Below are positions 6,352 through 45,885 of a stretch of DNA of 64,000 nt, piece after piece. The notes beneath the pieces were generated by a model. The model saw nothing but the letters and a program-made list of their open reading frames with translations, did not search any database and had not been told where the DNA came from. This DNA comes from Candidatus Latescibacterota bacterium (lineage in GTDB: Bacteria > Latescibacterota > UBA2968 > UBA8231): contig CBDCXV010000011.1 of assembly GCA_965223905.1 (NCBI GenBank), positions 1-64,000 of the forward strand. Direction: 5' to 3'. Made by a program: the position numbers and the translations under genes. Each line of letters opens with the position of its first letter. Positions within the stretch are counted from its first letter, which is position 1.

Positions 6352-7631
6352 GGCTGTTTCCTTTTGGCCAGGGCGGTTTCGATGTCGGGCAGGGGCGCCG
6401 GCGGATGCTTCTCGCGGGCGCGGGTGCGGGCCTCGACGCCGCCCGCGGCCAGCGCGGCCAGCTCCTGCTGCGAGCCGGGGTACCAGGCCTTGAGCCGGCG
6501 ACGGGCGATGTGGACGTGCAGCACCTCGTCGGCCCAGTCGAAGTCCTGCAGCGTCGTCATCAGCGGATGGCGCGCCCGGTCGCGGCAGAACTCGTACTCG
6601 AAGCGCTTCCCGGGGGGATACTTCATGAGGCCGGACTCGACGTCGCAGAGCATGGCGTACAGGGGCAGCGGCTCGAGCTGGTAGAGGTACTCCGTCTCCC
6701 ACTCCCGCAGCGGCAGGGCGGCGCGGTCCCCGAGCAGGTCCTCGATGGCCGCCTCGCCGAACAGGGAATGGCGCATCTCGTCCCACATGTGGCGGGAGAC
6801 GTCGACGTAGAACTGCCAGGGCTGCTCCCCGGTCTCGCAGAGCACGAACGAGAGGGCCTCGGCTATGGTGAGCTCTCCGAGGCGGGTGCAGATCATCTGG
6901 GCGAGGCGCGGGGGAACCTCCTCCTCGCCGACGTGCTCGATGTCCCACACCTTCGGGAAGGTGTCGTCCCAGACCTTGCGCCGGGGTACCCGGTAGGGCG
7001 ACCGGCCGCGGCAGGTACGCAGCGCATCGGGCCGCTTCTTGCCGCTGCCGTCGATGCCTCCGGCCGCCTCGAGGAGTTGCCCGAGATGGGCGGACCACTC
7101 ATCGGCCTGGCTCCGCGCCCGGGCCGACGACTCGACGGCGTCGCCGTACGCCGCTCGCAGCAGGGCGAGCCCCTCCTCCTCCTCGGCGACGATCTCCCGC
7201 AGGGCCCTAAGGCTGCCGTAGTCGGCGAGCCCGTTGGTTTCCCGCTCGTAGCGGCGGTATGCCTCGACCATGGCCGGCTTGATGACCAGGGCCAGGGCGG
7301 CCAGCAGCTCCGCGGTCCCGCGCGAGTGCATCGCCTCGTCGAAGAGGATCTCCAGGTCGGGGTCCGGCTCCTCGAAGGCACGCCGCCGGGAAACCCGCAG
7401 CTCGGTGAGCCTGTGGCGGAGGCGGTCGGCGTGCTGGCCGTCCTCGTACTGCGAGCGGGACAGCAGGGCCTTCACGTCCCGTTGAGGGGTGCTGATGATG
7501 TGGGCGGCCTCGAGGAACATCAGGCGGGACTCGGCATACGCGAGGCAATGCAGGCGGGCGCTGCAGACCTCGACCGGCAGCCCGGGGGACCGGGGGTTTC
7601 TCAGTCCGGCGTACTGGTATTCGATACCCAT
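6348..7631 (-). CDS. Tandem ferritin-like (ExxH) diiron protein, DUF455-like
   Basis: Helical protein with EDGQH, WDEMRH and WADEVLH carboxylate/His motifs. Confidence 0.65.
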   Translation of the reverse strand: MGIEYQYAGLRNPRSPGLPVEVCSARLHCLAYAESRLMFLEAAHIISTPQRDVKALLSRSQYEDGQHADRLRHRLTELRVSRRRAFEEPDPDLEILFDEAMHSRGTAELLAALALVIKPAMVEAYRRYERETNGLADYGSLRALREIVAEEEEGLALLRAAYGDAVESSARARSQADEWSAHLGQLLEAAGGIDGSGKKRPDALRTCRGRSPYRVPRRKVWDDTFPKVWDIEHVGEEEVPPRLAQMICTRLGELTIAEALSFVLCETGEQPWQFYVDVSRHMWDEMRHSLFGEAAIEDLLGDRAALPLREWETEYLYQLEPLPLYAMLCDVESGLMKYPPGKRFEYEFCRDRARHPLMTTLQDFDWADEVLHVHIARRRLKAWYPGSQQELAALAAGGVEARTRAREKHPPAPLPDIETALAKRKQP

Positions 7632-7642
7632 CTCTTCTCCTG

Positions 7643-8566
7643 TCAGGCCCGGTTCGCCGCGATGAACTCCTCGAGCTCGGCGCGGGTCGGGAGGCCGTCG
7701 ACGACCCCGAGCCGGGTGGCGCAGAAGGCCCCGGCGCAGTTGGCCCGCGCCACCGCCTCGGGCAGCGGCAGCCCCTCTCCCAAGCCGGTGGCCAGGGCGG
7801 CGTTGAAGCTGTCGCCGGCCCCGGTGGCGTCGACGGCGTCGATCCGCGGCGCCGGGATTTCGACGATCCCCTCGGCCGTCGCGATCAGGGAGCCTCGCTC
7901 ACCCAGGGTGACGACGATGCGCTCGACCCCGAGATCGAGGAGCCGGCGCGCCAGCTCTTCGGTCGGCGTGGGATCGTCCGGGGCCAGCCCCTGCAGGATG
8001 CGGGTCTCGGTCTCGTTCGGGGTCAAGAGGTCGACGTCGGCGAGCTGCCGCGGCTCGACCGCCCGTGCCGGCGCCGGGTTGAGCAGGGTCAGGGCCCCGT
8101 GCCTGCGGCCCAGCTCCATGGCCCGCTCGACCGCCTCGGGGGGCACCTCGAACTGGGTCATGACGATGTCGCTGCCGGCGATCAGGTTAGCGGCCGCCTC
8201 GACGTGTCCGGGGCGCATTTCCATGTTGGCCCCGAGATGTCCGACGATGGCGTTCTCCCCGGAGGGCAGGACGGTCACCATGCCGACCGCGGTGTTGACC
8301 CCCGGGATGCGGTGGATGTGCTCGCGGGAGATCCCCTCCGCCTCGAACAGCTCGTCGGCGACCGGGGCGAACAGGTCGTCCCCGGTGCAGGCGATGAGGC
8401 TGACGCCGGCGCCGAGGCGGGCGGCCCCGACCGCCTGGTTGGTCCCCTTGCCGCCGGGCCCCAGGTCGAAGAGATCGCCGATCAGCCCTTCCCCGGGCAC
8501 CGGCATGCGCGGCACTCTCACGGTGATGCCGACGACGAAGCTGCCGAGAACGGTGATCGCTACCAC
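7643..8566 (-). CDS. rbsK: Ribokinase (PfkB family)
   Basis: GPGGKGTNQAVGAARLG, LNPAPA, TPNETE, DATGAGDSF. GTG start after AGGAGG, overlapping the upstream stop. Confidence 0.85.
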   Translation of the reverse strand: MVAITVLGSFVVGITVRVPRMPVPGEGLIGDLFDLGPGGKGTNQAVGAARLGAGVSLIACTGDDLFAPVADELFEAEGISREHIHRIPGVNTAVGMVTVLPSGENAIVGHLGANMEMRPGHVEAAANLIAGSDIVMTQFEVPPEAVERAMELGRRHGALTLLNPAPARAVEPRQLADVDLLTPNETETRILQGLAPDDPTPTEELARRLLDLGVERIVVTLGERGSLIATAEGIVEIPAPRIDAVDATGAGDSFNAALATGLGEGLPLPEAVARANCAGAFCATRLGVVDGLPTRAELEEFIAANRA

Positions 8567-39251: not shown

Positions 39252-39902
39252 ATGCCGGTTTTTCGCGCAGGCAGCGGCCAGGCCCCGGCCTGGTGCGAGC
39301 TGCATCGATTCGACATCGTCGACCTGCCCGCCGGCGCCGGCAGGTACGACTTCGACCGCGCCGGCCCCAGGGAGAAGCTGATCGTCGGGGAGGGCGCCTG
39401 CACGGTCGCGGTTGGGGGCAGGGAGCAGGCCGCCGAAAAGGGAGCCAACATCGACCTGCCCGAAGGGGAAGGGGAACCGGGCTTCAGCATCCTCGAGGTC
39501 GCCGTGGATTCCACCCTGATCCGCATGGCCGGCGACTGGGGGGACGAGGTCGGCGGCTCCGGGCTGTTCTCGGTAGCCGAGGCGGCCGAGAGCGACCGCG
39601 CCGACCGGGGCGATCCTGTGGCATACGAGAAGCGGACCGGCTTCGACTGCCACTTCCACGACTGCGACGAGTACTGGATCCTGTTCGCCGGCAGCGGTGT
39701 GGTGGTGTCGGAAGGGAAGAGGTACGAGGTTTCGGCAGGGGACTGCGTGGCAACCGGGATGGGGCAGCACCACGACTTCCCGCTCGTTCACGAGCCGGTG
39801 CGGGCGGTCTATTTCGAGACCACCATGGAAGGGGAGAAGCGCCGCGGCCACCTCTGGGACCACATCCACGGGAAGGCGCAGCCGCGGGCGGAGCGGGTCT
39901 GA
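39252..39902 (+). CDS. Cupin-domain protein
   Basis: CHFHDCDEYW and HHDF metal-binding cupin motifs. Confidence 0.85.
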   Translation: MPVFRAGSGQAPAWCELHRFDIVDLPAGAGRYDFDRAGPREKLIVGEGACTVAVGGREQAAEKGANIDLPEGEGEPGFSILEVAVDSTLIRMAGDWGDEVGGSGLFSVAEAAESDRADRGDPVAYEKRTGFDCHFHDCDEYWILFAGSGVVVSEGKRYEVSAGDCVATGMGQHHDFPLVHEPVRAVYFETTMEGEKRRGHLWDHIHGKAQPRAERV

Positions 39903-40567
39903 AGCGGGGGTTCAGTCAGAAAGATCAAGAAAACGGGAAGGAAACAGTCCCCTTGAATTGGGAAAGATCGGGTCGACTCCATCCTTCGAATCAGATCTTC
40001 CTGGTGCTTCCCGCATTTTTCAGGATGGCATTCGCCGTATGGCGACTTTTCAGATTATGTGGCACCAGCAGAATTTTGCCGGTACTCAAGCATTTCCACT
40101 TTTCGTGGGAACCTTTTGCGTTTTCCAATACTTAAAGCCGAGTTTGGAAATTTCTATTGTGACCGTGTTGTATAACGTACCTGGCAAATATGCCGTGACC
40201 TTGATCGAATGATATACGTCACGACTCGTCCAACGGTACCGGGACCGGAAACCCCCGCGCAACGCCATTGCCTGGGGCGGAAGCAGTCGTCCCGGCATCT
40301 CGCTGATCCGGTTGTTCCGAGGGTCCGCGACAAGCTTCCGAGCCTGTGGTCGACGCCCTGCAGGACTTGGTCCGGCCATGCTCACCGACCGTGCATGTCC
40401 AGCCATTACTGCCGGCGGATCGCCATGTCGATTTGCCAGCGCCACTTCTCCCCGGATTCCTGAGCCCGCTACATGGCCTGGACATAGCCGTTGTTTGCAA
40501 AGGGACTTATATCGATAACTACGCAAGCGCAATTTTAGAAAACTCATCCGCGAATTTAATAAAAATC

Positions 40568-40576
40568 TGGTATAAC
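40568..40576 (+). promoter_or_regulatory. Candidate extended -10 promoter (antisense to the micro-ORFs)
   Basis: TGGTATAAC matches TGnTATAAT at all but the last position, in an AT-rich context; no clear -35. Confidence 0.35.
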
Positions 40577-40606
40577 ATAGTGTAAAAAAACCCCGAGACC
40601 CTGCAA

Positions 40607-40656
40607 GCTAAAATAGATGCAGCAGACCAGATCCGATCCGTTGCATCTACTACAGC
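40607..40656 (-). other. 22-bp RNA stem-loop immediately after the 25-aa micro-ORF stop
   Basis: Minus-strand GCTGTAGTAGATGCAACGGATC pairs with GGTCTGCTGCATCTATTTTAGC using several G-U wobbles; a U7 tract follows at 40584-40590. Confidence 0.6.
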
Positions 40657-40733
40657 TAAGCGTAGTGATTGAGAATGACCTGGATAATTTCCAGGACTAT
40701 CTCAAGCGAAACAACGACCCACTTGGGCAGCAT
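40656..40733 (-). CDS. 25-aa amphipathic micro-protein MLPKWVVVSLEIVLEIIQVILNHYA
   Basis: Strong SD GAAAGGAGAAAGG directly upstream; below the ORF-track length cutoff. Confidence 0.55.
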   Translation of the reverse strand: MLPKWVVVSLEIVLEIIQVILNHYA

Positions 40734-40751
40734 ACCTTTCTCCTTTCCAAT

Positions 40752-40862
40752 TTAAGGGTTTCGGTTTCTTGCCCTTCTCAGTATAGCAAGAAGAGTCCTG
40801 ACAGTTACGAGTATAGCCAAGGTGACTATATTGGGACTTTTCATGGGATCTTTCATCATCAT
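40752..40862 (-). CDS. 36-aa micro-protein MMMKDPMKSPNIVTLAILVTVRTLLAILRRARNRNP
   Basis: SD GAAAGG 8 nt upstream; hydrophobic helix with cationic tail. Confidence 0.45.
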   Translation of the reverse strand: MMMKDPMKSPNIVTLAILVTVRTLLAILRRARNRNP

Positions 40863-40956
40863 CGTAAAATCCTTTCACATATGAATGGGAGTTGAAAAAT
40901 GATTAACCGACTTCGCGAGGGGAGGCGTGACGAGCCAGCCGGATATACGACAAACA

Positions 40957-40993
40957 CAAAAAATCCCCGTTCCAATTAGGAGCCGAGGATTTC
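40957..40993 (-). terminator. Rho-independent terminator candidate
   Basis: Minus strand AAATCCTCGGCTCC-TAATT-GGAACGGGGATTT followed by TTTGTGTTTG. Confidence 0.55.
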
Positions 40994-41275
40994 CAAAAAT
41001 GACTCTTCTGTAAGGTGACTTATTTTTATTAGACGTATCCCGCAAACTCTTCTTTATAGCCTCTGGACGCAGGATTCAGGAAGTTCCTGATCCCTTTCAG
41101 AGCGGCTTCAGGGGACGTCCCATTGCCATAGGTGTCCTCCTTGCGGTATCGCTAGACAGGAACCTAATGAGGAAACCATATTTATTCAAAATATTCCTGG
41201 GACAGGACGACAGGCTCCATCCAACCGCTGGCGAGTCAGAGGTATCTTGCATCAGCTTCGCTCTGCTGCCCCGCT

Positions 41276-44200
41276 TCAACGAAGCAGGGTGAGCTTGCGG
41301 GTCCACGCTCCTTCGGCCGTCACCAGCCGGTACACGTATACTCCGCTGGCCAGGGGGCGGCCCTGGTCACTCCGCCCGTCCCAAGTGAGGCGGTGGAGGC
41401 CGATCTTCTTTGCACCCTCGTGCAGCACCGCCACCCGCTGGCCGGTTAGGGCGAACACCTCCAGCTGCACCTCCCCGGGGTGCAGCTGGAACCAGGAGAT
41501 CACGGTGCGGCTGTTGAAGGGGTTGGGCGCGTTCTGCCGAAGCTGCGGTCCCTCGGGCAGGCCGATCCGCTCGCTGGCCATGGCCAGCAGCTTGGCGCGC
41601 GCCGCCTGCCCGAAGTGCTCGGCGAAGAGGAAGAAGTCGGGGAAGTCCACCGTGCCGCTGCCGTCCAGGTCGAAGCGGGGGTCGCTGCCGCCGAAAGCCT
41701 CGGCAAAGAGGAAGAAGTCGTCGAAACCCGTCACTCCGTCACCGTTGAAGTCGCTGATGGCCAGAGCCGTGACGGTGAAGATCTGCGGCTGCAGGCCAAT
41801 CACCCTCACCTCCACGGTGATGGTCCCACTCCCCGGCCCGATGGTCAGGGCGGTGGAGGCGCGGCCCCTGGCGTCGGTGGTGCCGGTAGAGACAGAAAGG
41901 GTCCCCTCCCCCTCGGTGACCGAAAAGGCCACCACGGCTCCGGGCAGGACCACCCCGTTCTGATCCAGAACTTGGACCACAAAGGGGTCCTGAACTTGAG
42001 TGCCCGACGGCGCCTCCTGGTTATCGCCCGAGAGCTTGGTCAGGACCTCAGCCATACGCGAGAACAAGACCGCAACACCCCTGGCTTCCAAGGCTGGTAG
42101 ATGGGTATTGACGGCTAGCGGATTCAGCGGATTGCCCTCGAGATTCAATTGCGTCAATTGCGTTGCAGACTCAAGACCGGTCAAATCCCGGATCTCCCGG
42201 TTGCTCACATTGAGTGTGGTCAAACGGGCTATGTCTGTTCTGGTGATAGGTCCGTATCCCGATTTGCCCAGTGTTTCTCGAATTGCCGCTTTGAGGTTGA
42301 AGTCGGCGATATGTACTACGGGTGTGACATAAGGCGACATATCCCACAAGACGATGGTGTAATCCCCCTTTCCATAATTGCCTAATGCCGTGGCGAAAGT
42401 TGTGCCATCAGGGGAAAATGACCCAGAAGAGGAAAACAGTTTCTCTCCGCTGGCCCCTTGAAATGCCGCGATTCTTTCGTATGTATTTGTATCCCAGTCT
42501 ATCCCCCAAAGTTTAATATCCCCCCCCTGTATCGCGGAGACAACTTTTTCGCCATCGGGGGTAAATGACACATAGCGCAGAATACTTTGTTTGCTTACTT
42601 CAAACGCATCCTTAAAGGTTTTTTTATCCACGTCCCAAAAAGCGAGTTTGTTATTAAAAGCACCCGAAATGAGGGTTTTTCCATCCGGTGAGAACGATAC
42701 AGAAGTAACCGTGTTCTCATAGGGAAGGTAGGCAATCTGGGTTTTTGTCGCCACATCCCATAGCCTGATTGTGCTATCAAAAGCACCTGAAGCAAGGGTT
42801 TTTCCATCCGGTGAAAACGACACGCTCTGGACACCATTACTATGGCCGCTAAGGGTGGCGATCTCGGTTTTTGTTGCCATGTCCCACAGCTTGATCGTGT
42901 GTGCTGGACTTGTCCAATCATCGGTCAACGCTGAGGCGAGGATCTTTCCATCGGGCGAAAAGGCCAAAGACATGATCCGCCCCTCATCACCGCCATGCTC
43001 GAAGGTGATGATCTCTGTTCTTGTTTCCACATCCCATAGCTTGATCGTGCCTTCCCATGTTCCCGTGGCGAGGATTGTGCCATCGGGAGAAAAGGCCACA
43101 GAGTAGACCCGGCGAAAATACCCCCGACCCTCATATCCTGAGAGTGTAGCGATATGTTCGCCTGTCTCTGCGTTCCACAGTTCAACGGTTTGATTCTCTG
43201 ACCCTGAGGCGAGGACTTTCCCATCGGGAGAAAAGGCCACCCCATAGGCACCATTTCTCTTTCCCCTGTCCAGGGAGATGACGAGTTTGTGGGTCGAATT
43301 GTGCAGCAGCGATAGGCCTATTTTGCCGATATTGCCGAGCATATCCACAACCTCGAACTCCATCCTGTGCGTAAGAAGGGTGGAGAGATTCGTATGGTCC
43401 CTGTCCGATGGAATAATGCCGTCATACTCGAAGTCAACAATCGCACTCGTCACACCCTCTAATAGACGACCTGTCTTCAATTCGGGAGAGCCTGCGGAAA
43501 AGTGGGTTTCTGGTGTTGTAACAAATAGAGATACTTGCTGAAGACCGTCAGGGTGGCTGAGTTCAAGTTGAATAGGGACGCTTGTCGCTCCTGTCCGATA
43601 TGAACGCGACGAAAGAACCTGACCCGTTGGCAACTCGCTCTCAGAAAGCGTCTCCGTTGGACTATCAGGATTGAAATGGGGGTGTACGGCCAGATGCCCG
43701 GCGCTGAGCTCGGATAGCCTGCTTCGCCCGGGGCCATAGGACATGATGTACTCCCCATCGTTGAAATTGTGCCACAATCCGAAAGCGTGTCCCAGTTCAT
43801 GGGCGGCCCTGGCCACGAAATTGGGGTCGATATATTGTCTCAACATCGCCCATCCACCGGTTCTGGTGGATTGCAGTCCCAGCCCCAAGACATTCCGCAA
43901 TTGAATGTCTTCCTCGTTGCCAAGGACGATGAAGTAAACGTTCGTGTCGAAATCGAATTCCTGTTGAATACGTTCAAGGGCACCCCAATGGTCGTAAGTG
44001 CCTCCGGCACCATATGCGATATGAACCATGGGTTCATTTTGTGCATCCCTCTCAAAACGGAAGGTTCTCTCTCCGAATCCGTGCGCCCTGATCTGGTCGG
44101 CAAAAATACGCTGCACCTCCCGAATCGTAGATTTCATCTTATCAACTACTTCTTGCCTGAACGCCTGCGGATCGGATACGAAGTAGATCATTCGCACGGT

Positions 44201-44310
44201 GCGCGGCTCTCCCGCATTCAACAGGGCCGGCTTGGCCGCGGGGCGTTGCAGATGGCGGTCAAGCCTCTCCGAATCGACAGGCAGGCAGAAACCCGTGTCC
44301 TCGGCCGAGG
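41276..44310 (-). pseudogene. Secreted zinc-metalloprotease-like/WD40/LRR/Ig/dockerin-like/FlgD-T9SS-CTD protein, 3' part, IS-interrupted
   Basis: AHELGHAFGLWH zincin motif; ~7 WD40 repeats (VAFSPDG...LWD); LRR cap (DFNLKAAIRETLG); Big-like Ig; DFNGDG/DLDGSG dockerin-like pair; QNAPNPFN...GVYVYRL tail. Confidence 0.85.
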
Positions 44311-45885
44311 GGGCGTCTTAAGTAATTGTTATAGCGCAATTCAGGTGCGTATGTGTATATTTTACAGTAAGTTGCTTTCTTTTTCCGCATCCCCTGCGGC
44401 GCGCTCCCCTGATTTCAGAAAGAAGGGGAGCGATGAGTGCGATTCTCTCTCTGGAAGTTTTTCAGGAGCGGCAGAGTCAGGACCGCTTTCGAAGCCGGGC
44501 GCATGAAGCCTTGGACCAATGGCTGGATCGGGTGGAGACGCAAATGAGCGAGCGCGGATCTTGTGCGCCGACGTTGATGGAGATCACCGCGGCGATGTCT
44601 CAAGAGCGCTCCGGGCTCACCGCGGCCTTGGTGGAAGCCTTCGTCGAACGCCGCCACGGCCATTTCCTGGCCCAGGAAGAGGCGGCCTGCCCCAAGTGCA
44701 AAGGCCTGCTGCGAGCGCGCCCGTCTCGCTCGCGCACGGTGGAGACGCTGCTCGGGCCGGTGACCTTGGAGCGTCCCTATTTCTACTGCGTTGGCTGTCA
44801 CCACGGGTTCTATCCGCTGGACGAGGCCCTGGGCCTGTCGGCGCAGCGCAAGCAGTGGGACGTGCAGCAGGCCGGGGTCAAGCTGGGGCTGGAGATGCCC
44901 CACCGGCGCGCCGCCGAACTGTTGGACGAGCTCACCGACGCGTCGATGAGCGATTGTGTGATTCACGAGGTGCTGCAACAGACCGGGTCGTTGGACGTGC
45001 TGCAGGTGTGTCCGGACGCGGCCGATATCCAGGATCGCATTGCGCAAGCCGCCGCCGGTCGCAAGTGGCGGCCGATCGTGGTGTTGGCCATCGACGCGGC
45101 CGACGTGCCCAGTCGTCCCCAGACCGCCAAAGGCACCCGTCCCGGACGCAAGAAGAGCCGGGCTCGGCGAAGGCGTTGGCAGGGGGAATACCACGAAGCC
45201 AAGGGCTTTCGCTTCTACCTGATAGACGATGAGCGCATCGAGCAGCTGATCTCCTGGCACCAGATGGGCAACGAACAGGCCTTCGGCGCGGCCTTGCGCC
45301 AGGTCAAGGAGGCGGGGCTGATCCCGGAGGATCAGGTGCGCTTGTGTGCCATCGGAGATGGCGCTCCGTGGATCTGGAAGTGGGTGGAAGAGCTGTTCCC
45401 GAGCGCCCGTCAGATCCTCGACTACTACCATTGCAGCAGCTACCTGCACGCGGTGGCCGAGGCCCAATACGGCGCCGATGCGGCGCGTGCTGCCCATTGG
45501 CTGGAAGCGACCCTGGCGCGCCTGTTCTGCGGCGAGGGCAGCGGCGTGGTCTGGGGTCTGCAGCGCATGCAGCCGCTCTCGGAAGAGGCCGGAGAGGCCA
45601 TCGGCACGGCCTTGACCTACCTGCAAAAGCGACTGCACCAGGTCGATTTCGGCAGCCATCGCAAGGGCGGATACCCGATCGGGTCGGGGGCGATCGAATC
45701 GGCGCATCGCTTCATCGGCCACGTTCGTCTGAAACGGTCGGGCGCTTGGTGGTATAAGGAAAACAGCAACGCCATTCTGGCCCTGCGCTGCGCCTTGTAC
45801 AATGGAACGCTTGACCGGGTCTTTCAGCAGTACCGAGAAAACCTAAAAACAACCACCGAAACCGTAACAATCAGCTAAGACACCC
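44311..45885 (+). mobile_element. Complete ISKra4-type (UPF0236 DDE) insertion sequence, 1575 bp
   Basis: TIRs GGGCGTCTTAAGTAATTGTTA / reverse complement GGGTGTCTTAGCTGATTGTTA; 8-bp TSD GGCCGAGG at 44303-44310 and 45886-45893. Confidence 0.92.
44433..45878 (+). CDS. ISKra4/ISLre2-like transposase
   Basis: CPKC...CVGC zinc ribbon, IGDGAPWIW, ILDYYH, PIGSGAIESAHR, LKRSGAWW. Confidence 0.92.
   Translation: MSAILSLEVFQERQSQDRFRSRAHEALDQWLDRVETQMSERGSCAPTLMEITAAMSQERSGLTAALVEAFVERRHGHFLAQEEAACPKCKGLLRARPSRSRTVETLLGPVTLERPYFYCVGCHHGFYPLDEALGLSAQRKQWDVQQAGVKLGLEMPHRRAAELLDELTDASMSDCVIHEVLQQTGSLDVLQVCPDAADIQDRIAQAAAGRKWRPIVVLAIDAADVPSRPQTAKGTRPGRKKSRARRRRWQGEYHEAKGFRFYLIDDERIEQLISWHQMGNEQAFGAALRQVKEAGLIPEDQVRLCAIGDGAPWIWKWVEELFPSARQILDYYHCSSYLHAVAEAQYGADAARAAHWLEATLARLFCGEGSGVVWGLQRMQPLSEEAGEAIGTALTYLQKRLHQVDFGSHRKGGYPIGSGAIESAHRFIGHVRLKRSGAWWYKENSNAILALRCALYNGTLDRVFQQYRENLKTTTETVTIS

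Follow-up and report, generated by a model that had tools for sequence, protein, structure and literature searches.

In the hok/mok/sok system, a small membrane peptide is translated in coupling with an overlapping upstream frame. Insertion sequences (IS) of the IS1595 family that carry passenger genes are referred to as "transporter IS", and Rho-independent terminators combine a GC-containing stem with a subsequent U run. Two reports describe type I toxins as small (<60-70 amino acids [aa]) hydrophobic peptides with a predicted transmembrane helix (PMC8309996, PMC2887945). Here, we compare with these systems a locus on the minus strand of a stretch of DNA referred to as the window, namely, the first 64 kb of contig C11 from the 7.9-Mb genome (~64% GC) of a Candidatus Latescibacterota bacterium. 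The locus contains two short open reading frames (ORFs), ORF1 and ORF2, and an earlier note had interpreted it as a candidate toxin-antitoxin (TA) system of type I made up of two peptides, a structured RNA, a long-range fold-back, and an antisense promoter. Our analysis leads to another assignment: on balance, the locus is probably an orphan, "solo" gene of a mobile element that encodes a predicted membrane peptide, ORF2, and lies beside transposon debris.

The observations on which the earlier interpretation was built were all reproduced. The setting is AT rich, with a local GC content of 42-45%; both minus-strand ORFs have Shine-Dalgarno (SD) sites and the translations reported for them; and the ~22-bp stem, the U7 run, the 10-nt inverted pair, and the plus-strand motif TGGTATAAC are found where they had been placed. 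The present analysis primarily corrects what was made of these features, and the TA idea becomes a minority view: such a pair is possible, as judged from sequence, and unproven.

At 25 aa and with a grand average of hydropathy (GRAVY) of 1.29, the ORF2 product has the size and hydrophobicity of a type I toxin. In these reports, TisB of E. coli (29 aa) and membrane type I toxins share with ORF2 a short single hydrophobic helix with a polar face, and type I toxins share with the ORF2 family a multicopy, mobile-DNA setting and a structured 3' end. TisB is described there with alternating charges, whereas the polar stripe of ORF2 is formed by Glu11-Glu15-Gln18-Asn22. ORF2 matched no curated type I toxin family (Hok, Ldr, Fst, Ibs, TisB, and others), and searches of Pfam and NCBIfam with ORF1, ORF2, and two further family members returned zero families, so that membership in a known toxin family was not borne out.

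ORF2 and its peptide family

ORF2 (positions 40656 to 40733, minus strand; 25 aa, MLPKWVVVSLEIVLEIIQVILNHYA) was identified as a divergent, "solo" member of a conserved family of 24- to 30-aa peptides. When compared with a hidden Markov model (HMM) built without the window sequence, it obtained an E value of 5.6e-9 and ranked 4th among the 173,102 six-frame pieces of its own genome (G000), in which tblastx detected three ORF2 paralogues. Profile searches retrieved 15 complete family copies, of which 5 are located in G000, 7 in the same-genus genome G001, and 3 in G004, a further genome of the phylum. Truncated family copies, including some that lack a start codon, are present elsewhere in G000. 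Of 168 genomes in the phylum, 3 contained family matches (E ≤ 0.001), as did 4 of 61 relatives (E ≤ 0.05). Plasmids and phages gave no match at E ≤ 1, and none of the 213 pattern matches in metagenome contigs or of the 23 in viral contigs passed. In a scan of the genome_contigs collection, 1 of 83 pattern matches passed; it corresponds to a Bacteroidota metagenome-assembled genome, covers residues 10-25 only with no evident start, and was judged to be a chance match. The family appears to be undescribed, as judged by family libraries and not by the literature.

The coding capacity of the family was assessed from the codon differences, in each frame, among 12 distinct nucleotide sequences that represent 14 family copies. 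The peptide frame showed 357 synonymous and 434 nonsynonymous differences (45% synonymous, 357/791), a mean BLOSUM score of +0.59 for replacements, and no stops, whereas the synonymous share in the five other frames was between 9 and 24%. In the exact antisense frame, which corresponds to a plus-strand ORF of 92 aa, 14% of the differences were synonymous, the mean BLOSUM score was -0.57, and one stop was encountered. Differences in the peptide frame were concentrated at the third codon position (322/207/559). Taken together, these substitution patterns show that the coding frame of the family is the peptide frame. The small hydrophobic peptide genes noticed earlier are therefore upheld in the case of ORF2, by its HMM match and coding pattern, but not in that of ORF1, which has no relatives.

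The ORF2 product is predicted to form a hydrophobic helix with an aromatic boundary from W5 to Y24, 19 positions apart. Its core mean hydrophobicity is 0.57, and the helix calculations as a whole gave values of 0.35-0.62 with a hydrophobic moment of 0.32-0.46. W-RSR or W-KSK forms the C terminus in the majority of the family; the corresponding sequence in the window copy is NHYA, which is bulky and uncharged.

A purine-rich SD within the 20 nt preceding the ATG was observed in all 15 complete copies; that of ORF2 (GGAAAGGAG; 40740 to 40748, minus strand) lies 6 nt before the ATG and is mostly unpaired in predicted folds, with an unpaired probability of 0.35-0.77 depending on the RNA ends assumed. 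The 15 copies also share a strong hairpin after the stop codon (ΔG of -16.6 to -36.6), and 14 of them have a T3-7AGC tail behind it, at +114 to +136. In nine nonwindow copies, a stem of 15 pairs has 97.8% of its cells paired and 6 of its 15 pairs altered on both sides, which was reached by none of 500 shuffles.

In the window, the terminator-type hairpin of ORF2 (40606 to 40657, minus strand) has the core stem UAGAUGCA/UGCAUCUA, an enlarged loop, and a total stem of ~22 bp in the minimum free energy structure (~40606-40657), and the conserved tail is present as UUUUAGC at 40607-40613. This core stem (TAGATGCAA / CTGCATCTA) is the counterpart of the G001 stem (TAGGTGCAA / TTGCGCCTA), from which it differs by compensatory changes and by its enlarged loop. 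The structured RNA of the earlier interpretation is thus real and covarying, but it is the terminator of the family. Folding both strands, as had been suggested, gave a z-score of approximately -2.9 on each; the fold therefore favors neither strand. A terminator consensus scan did not call the window hairpin, owing to its enlarged loop and to the presence of only four U residues after the stem. These two properties set it apart from Rho-independent terminators, with which it shares a GC-containing stem, compensatory changes, and a subsequent U run; in addition, the invariant AGC would be needless for a plain terminator.

This AGC follows the T run in 14 of 15 copies (e.g., at 40607-40613 of the window), and the sequences of multicopy units part within a few bases beyond it. 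It could be a target site or lie at the boundary of the mobile unit.

The homologous loci thus conserve the ORF, the SD, and the hairpin for ORF2 (15 copies), with the covariation seen in nine of them, whereas none was found for ORF1. The conserved unit consists of an SD and the ORF of the peptide, after which come a strong terminator hairpin and a T-rich tail, TTTAGC, and the comparison shows a conserved, selected, and lineage-restricted family of 24- to 30-residue predicted peptides that resides on mobile DNA and has its own SD and terminator. Genes of 25-30 codons escape gene finders; here, one of them represents a conserved and selected family tied to mobile DNA, in a phylum of which few genomes have been studied.

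Upstream frame, mobile DNA, and the adjacent transposon end

In 12 of the 15 complete copies, the peptide ATG lies no more than 6 nt from the end of an upstream open frame with a length of 69 codons or more. The nine copies of this kind in G000 and G001 have an ATGA overlap with this frame, which in these two genomes encodes a protein of 98-129 aa whose N-terminal segment is hydrophobic and whose tail is highly charged. The family of this upstream protein is tiny (10 proteins; 18 representatives among 1.84 billion), and searches of Pfam, PHROGs, and NCBIfam gave no match and the Atlas no lead. Canonical copies resemble hok/mok/sok in being adjacent to an upstream frame with which translation could be coupled, but this frame encodes a charged protein of 98-129 aa and not an overlapping leader. 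The window copy differs further in that the upstream frame is absent. A start codon adjoining an upstream frame of ~70-220 codons was found neither there nor in another copy of the same genome, own_c2 (C2:418624-418698), and the window copy is therefore classified as a "solo" variant. The two copies form a subtype without upstream frame and without basic tail, both ending in Y/G-A; own_c2 has its own SD and terminator and the same short C terminus as the window copy.

In G001, the seven copies lie at the end of a repeat unit that spans at least 6.3 kb and has a fuzzy left edge. Besides the upstream protein and the peptide, this unit carries an XRE-type and a RadC-like gene, an IS1595-type transposase, and an ORF of 84 aa, and its copies diverge directly after the T run and AGC. 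An IS1595 transposase is encoded within 1.5 kb upstream of all seven G001 copies and within 6 kb of three of the five copies in G000, and many units lie 0.7-6 kb from IS1595-type transposases. The peptide unit thus resembles IS1595-family elements with passenger genes in adjoining such transposases, and it differs from them in having no bounding terminal inverted repeats, in the length of the G001 unit, and in the single truncated IS end present in the window. The mobile unit is real. A composite element of 35-48 kb bounded by IS ends in G001 was considered and rejected, as two copies share only ~6.3 kb.

G000 also contains an inverted repeat of 51 nt from the peptide ORF (C2:418630-418680 and C2:420147-420197, 94% identity) that flanks an IS1595-type transposase gene; the second piece lacks a start codon.

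Next to the window copy, 97 nt (40502 to 40598, plus strand) correspond to the truncated end of an IS1595-type element. This end was found in 26 copies across G000, G001, and the second same-genus genome, G002, and in none in G004. Full copies measure ~1.9 kb (e.g., G000 C2:484079-485968 and C11:1207091-1208810); the 1.9-kb copy encodes a 299-aa protein identified as a DDE_Tnp_IS1595 transposase (PF12762, E = 1.8e-26), and ~8 nt (GGAATTA) are, by eye, common to both element ends. All 26 copies contain an inward extended -10 element, which is TGGTATAAT in 20 of them, TGGTATAAC in 4, including the window (40568-40576), and another variant in 2; the hexamer is accordingly TATAAC in the window, as compared with TATAAT in 20 of 26 copies. 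In 24 copies, ~55 conserved nt follow the -10 element. The window element is cut at 40598, ~10 nt from the T run and AGC of the peptide unit, and includes an A7/U7 run at 40584-40590. RNAalifold detected no consensus structure behind the promoter in the 24 copies, and Rfam gave no match. In full IS1595-type elements, the conserved inward -10 lies at the transposase-distal end and is antisense to the transposase gene.

Since both the -10 element and the U7 run lie inside the truncated IS end, they are transposon debris that was set beside ORF2 by rearrangement. The antisense promoter of the earlier note consequently survives as a motif that faces ORF2, but it belongs to an IS1595-type end and is not conserved in the peptide family: a scan of 13 distinct family copies found no comparable promoter behind 10 of them, and own_c2 has none either. 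The -10 element could still fire across ORF2, because the scan detected no plus-strand terminator after it, although its last base is altered. As far as the sequence allows us to judge, a promoter-like element thus faces ORF2 from the other strand, outside the conserved layout of the family.

The locus is part of a low-GC island (39900-41250, 42-53% GC). The left flank is common to both same-genus genomes up to 39904/39917, with identities of 94% and 92%, and the right flank matches G002 from 41022 onward at 95-97%, but elsewhere in the G002 genome. Between them, 39906-41021 had no match in G001 or G002 apart from one short repeat, the IS end. With the flanks shared and this segment unmatched, the ORF2 locus is situated within a patch of ~1.1 kb (39906 to 41021) at a synteny break. 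At the spot equivalent to window position 41022, G002 holds other sequence (L016, G002:C1 ~7530-7730), consisting of the end of a different ORF, so that the ancestral state of the junction is not inferable. In the window, the predicted peptide unit alone survives, in ~1.1 kb of apparent mobile-element debris at a rearrangement junction.

Contigs from the runs of other samples (X3 and X4, from two studies, and X10) were used for comparison; they are silent on expression. A contig of X10 spans 40502-40784 and bridges the two parts, which indicates that the junction between peptide unit and IS end exists elsewhere. X3 and X4, with one contig each, retain 40611-40734 and 40838-40969 at ~85-90% identity, and in both of them 40735-40837 is swapped for 113 other letters, which removes most of ORF1. 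The related contigs thus retain ORF2 and its hairpin. The only indel in ORF2 is an in-frame deletion of 12 nt in X10, and the hairpin loop has a +1 insertion after 40631 in X10 and after 40633 in X3 and X4, which shifts the frame of the overlapping plus-strand ORF.

Competing readings of the locus

Under the reading we favor, translation of ORF2 would start from the SD of this gene and yield one helix that, considering its aromatic boundaries and polar stripe, would be expected to insert in the membrane and self-associate, and transcription would stop at the hairpin. In canonical copies, the peptide would probably be made together with the upstream protein. If the peptide turned out to be a membrane toxin, or to partner the upstream protein, the known cargo of IS1595-type elements would gain a module based on a small protein.

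Several findings weigh against this reading. The window copy has neither the upstream partner frame nor the basic C-terminal tail of most members, and four of the five listed ORF2 substitutions in X3/X4 alter the residue (H23Y, I16V, V13A, and I12M). The link to IS1595 is one of proximity, and transposases are missing from the 6 kb around the window copy and around own_p1, as they are from the nearest 1.5 kb in G004. A search for an inverted-repeat partner of the peptide unit's end found none, and no match in Pfam, NCBIfam, PHROGs, or the ESM Atlas hints at the role of the family. The window copy may be decaying.

The same losses underlie the strongest of the rival explanations, namely, that the window copy is a dead relic, a decaying and unexpressed remnant of a mobile unit whose frame is open merely through shortness. 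Its neighbors are fragments as well (a HicA-like piece and the truncated IS end), start-less truncated family copies are present elsewhere in the genome, and the promoter scan detected no sigma-70-like promoter on the minus strand. An extended -10-like motif within ORF1 (TGCTATACT; 40780 to 40788, minus strand) could serve as a promoter of ORF2; it is not conserved in the X3/X4 contigs. On the other side, the ATG, the SD, and the terminator of 18-22 bp are intact; a second solo copy, own_c2, shares the short C terminus; the sole indel of ORF2 in other samples is in frame; and two of the residue changes cited above, V13A and I16V, go toward the family consensus. We therefore consider a relic unlikely, albeit worth serious consideration, and retain the solo-gene reading.

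Somewhat less probable is a type I TA system, in which the product of ORF2 (or of ORF1) would act as a toxin on the membrane and its mRNA would be silenced by a convergent antisense RNA transcribed from the plus-strand TGGTATAAC. In its favor are the small, hydrophobic ORF2 with its polar stripe, which resembles the amphiphilic TisB as described in PMC8309996; the multicopy occurrence of the family on mobile DNA; the bulky and charged C termini of most members, a criterion of Fozo et al. (PMC2887945); and the location of the -10 within a strongly conserved promoter-like element with no plus-strand terminator after it. However, this promoter stems from an unrelated IS-end fragment in which the last -10 base is C, and, as noted above, it is not conserved in the family. 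Furthermore, 12 of 15 copies have the peptide start next to where an upstream frame ends, unlike stand-alone type I toxins, the SD of ORF2 is not clearly sequestered, no curated toxin family was matched, and the long-range pair occurs at chance level (see below).

A related proposal, which we regard as doubtful, is that of a type I-like module in which the peptides would be membrane-depolarizing toxins, curbed in canonical copies through coupling to the upstream protein and in solo copies through antisense RNA from the captured IS1595 end. If true, a transposon end would have been built into such a module, and the peptides would be a new toxin family carried by mobile elements of a little-studied phylum.

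We consider it very improbable that ORF1 and ORF2 form a two-peptide operon, i.e., that they are made together and paired by a coupling like that of mok/hok or as a two-peptide membrane agent. ORF1 (40752 to 40862, minus strand) is an open frame of 36 aa with the SD AAAGGA at 40870-40875, 7 nt before its ATG, a hydrophobic core, and a net charge of +6. It is encoded on the same strand as ORF2, with 18 nt between them, and both have an SD. A precedent is yonT/yoyJ/SR6, where two small toxins are associated with one antisense RNA (PMC5848175). But ORF1 was found in 1 of 168 genomes, its own, without any paralogue there, and X3 and X4 retain ORF2 while most of ORF1 is swapped. The two-peptide unit of the earlier note is thus not supported. 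ORF1 is also unlike the upstream protein of the family; its interpretation as a truncated version of that protein was rejected, as MAFFT alignments gave identities of 14-32%, hhalign a probability of 0.2%, and tblastn no match. At the level of sequence, we found no evidence for ORF1 as a gene.

The long-range fold-back was equally unsupported. The inverted pair CCGAGACCCT / AGGGTTTCGG (40593 to 40602 and 40755-40764) is at chance level, since, when these 326 nt were subjected to 200 dinucleotide shuffles, 56.5% of the shuffled sequences contained at least one such 10-nt pair, and on the strand of the peptide mRNA it contains an A·C mismatch. Its 3' arm (40593-40602) straddles the junction between peptide unit and IS end, and neither arm lies within the segments that the X3/X4 contigs have in common with the window. 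Under the favored reading, both ORF1 and this pairing would be incidental.

It is hardly credible that the plus-strand ORF of 92 aa (40617-40895), the longest open frame in this stretch and antisense to both micro-ORFs, is the actual gene. Several paralogues likewise have this antisense frame open, but its substitution pattern is inferior to that of the peptide frame, one copy contains a stop, its ATG is not preceded by an SD, Pfam gave no match, and the indels in X10 and X3/X4 would shift its frame.

Surroundings of the locus

To the left, the locus is flanked by a prolyl-tRNA-synthetase-like ORF and a cupin-domain ORF, the latter ending at 39902, and to the right by the gene for a 981-aa WD40 protein on the minus strand, with its 3' end at 41276. 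Rfam and ARAGORN gave no match in the window region, and Rfam likewise gave none in seven loci.

Within the low-GC patch, a fragment resembling a HicA toxin (39991 to 40128, minus strand) matched Pfam HicA_toxin at positions 18-57 of 58 of the profile, with E = 0.0017 and 18.9 bits, below the cutoff of 27; the first 17 profile positions are absent. It has a tblastx paralogue at C11:1271109-1271204, and its high depth in contigs from other samples suggests a repeated element.

The final 57 nt and stop of the cupin ORF (39850-39906) are repeated at C11:64631-64687 (98%) and C9:834851-834909 (93%), and the synteny break with respect to G001 and G002 coincides with the end of this repeat. Another repeat, of 109 nt (41100-41208), follows closely on the downstream side of the WD40 gene. 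G000 has a single copy of it, whereas it is multicopy in G002 (84-93% identity) and present in nine copies in G030 (74-75%).

Farther to the right, ~1.57 kb (44314-45884) is absent from G002, where 44313 and 45885 join directly. This stretch holds a UPF0236-type transposase-like ORF of 481 aa (44433-45878), which is also found beside p2, another copy of the peptide in G000. The WD40 gene itself (41276-44221, minus strand) is split in composition, as its 3' part (41276-42000) has a GC content of 63-70% and the remainder one of 44-55%.

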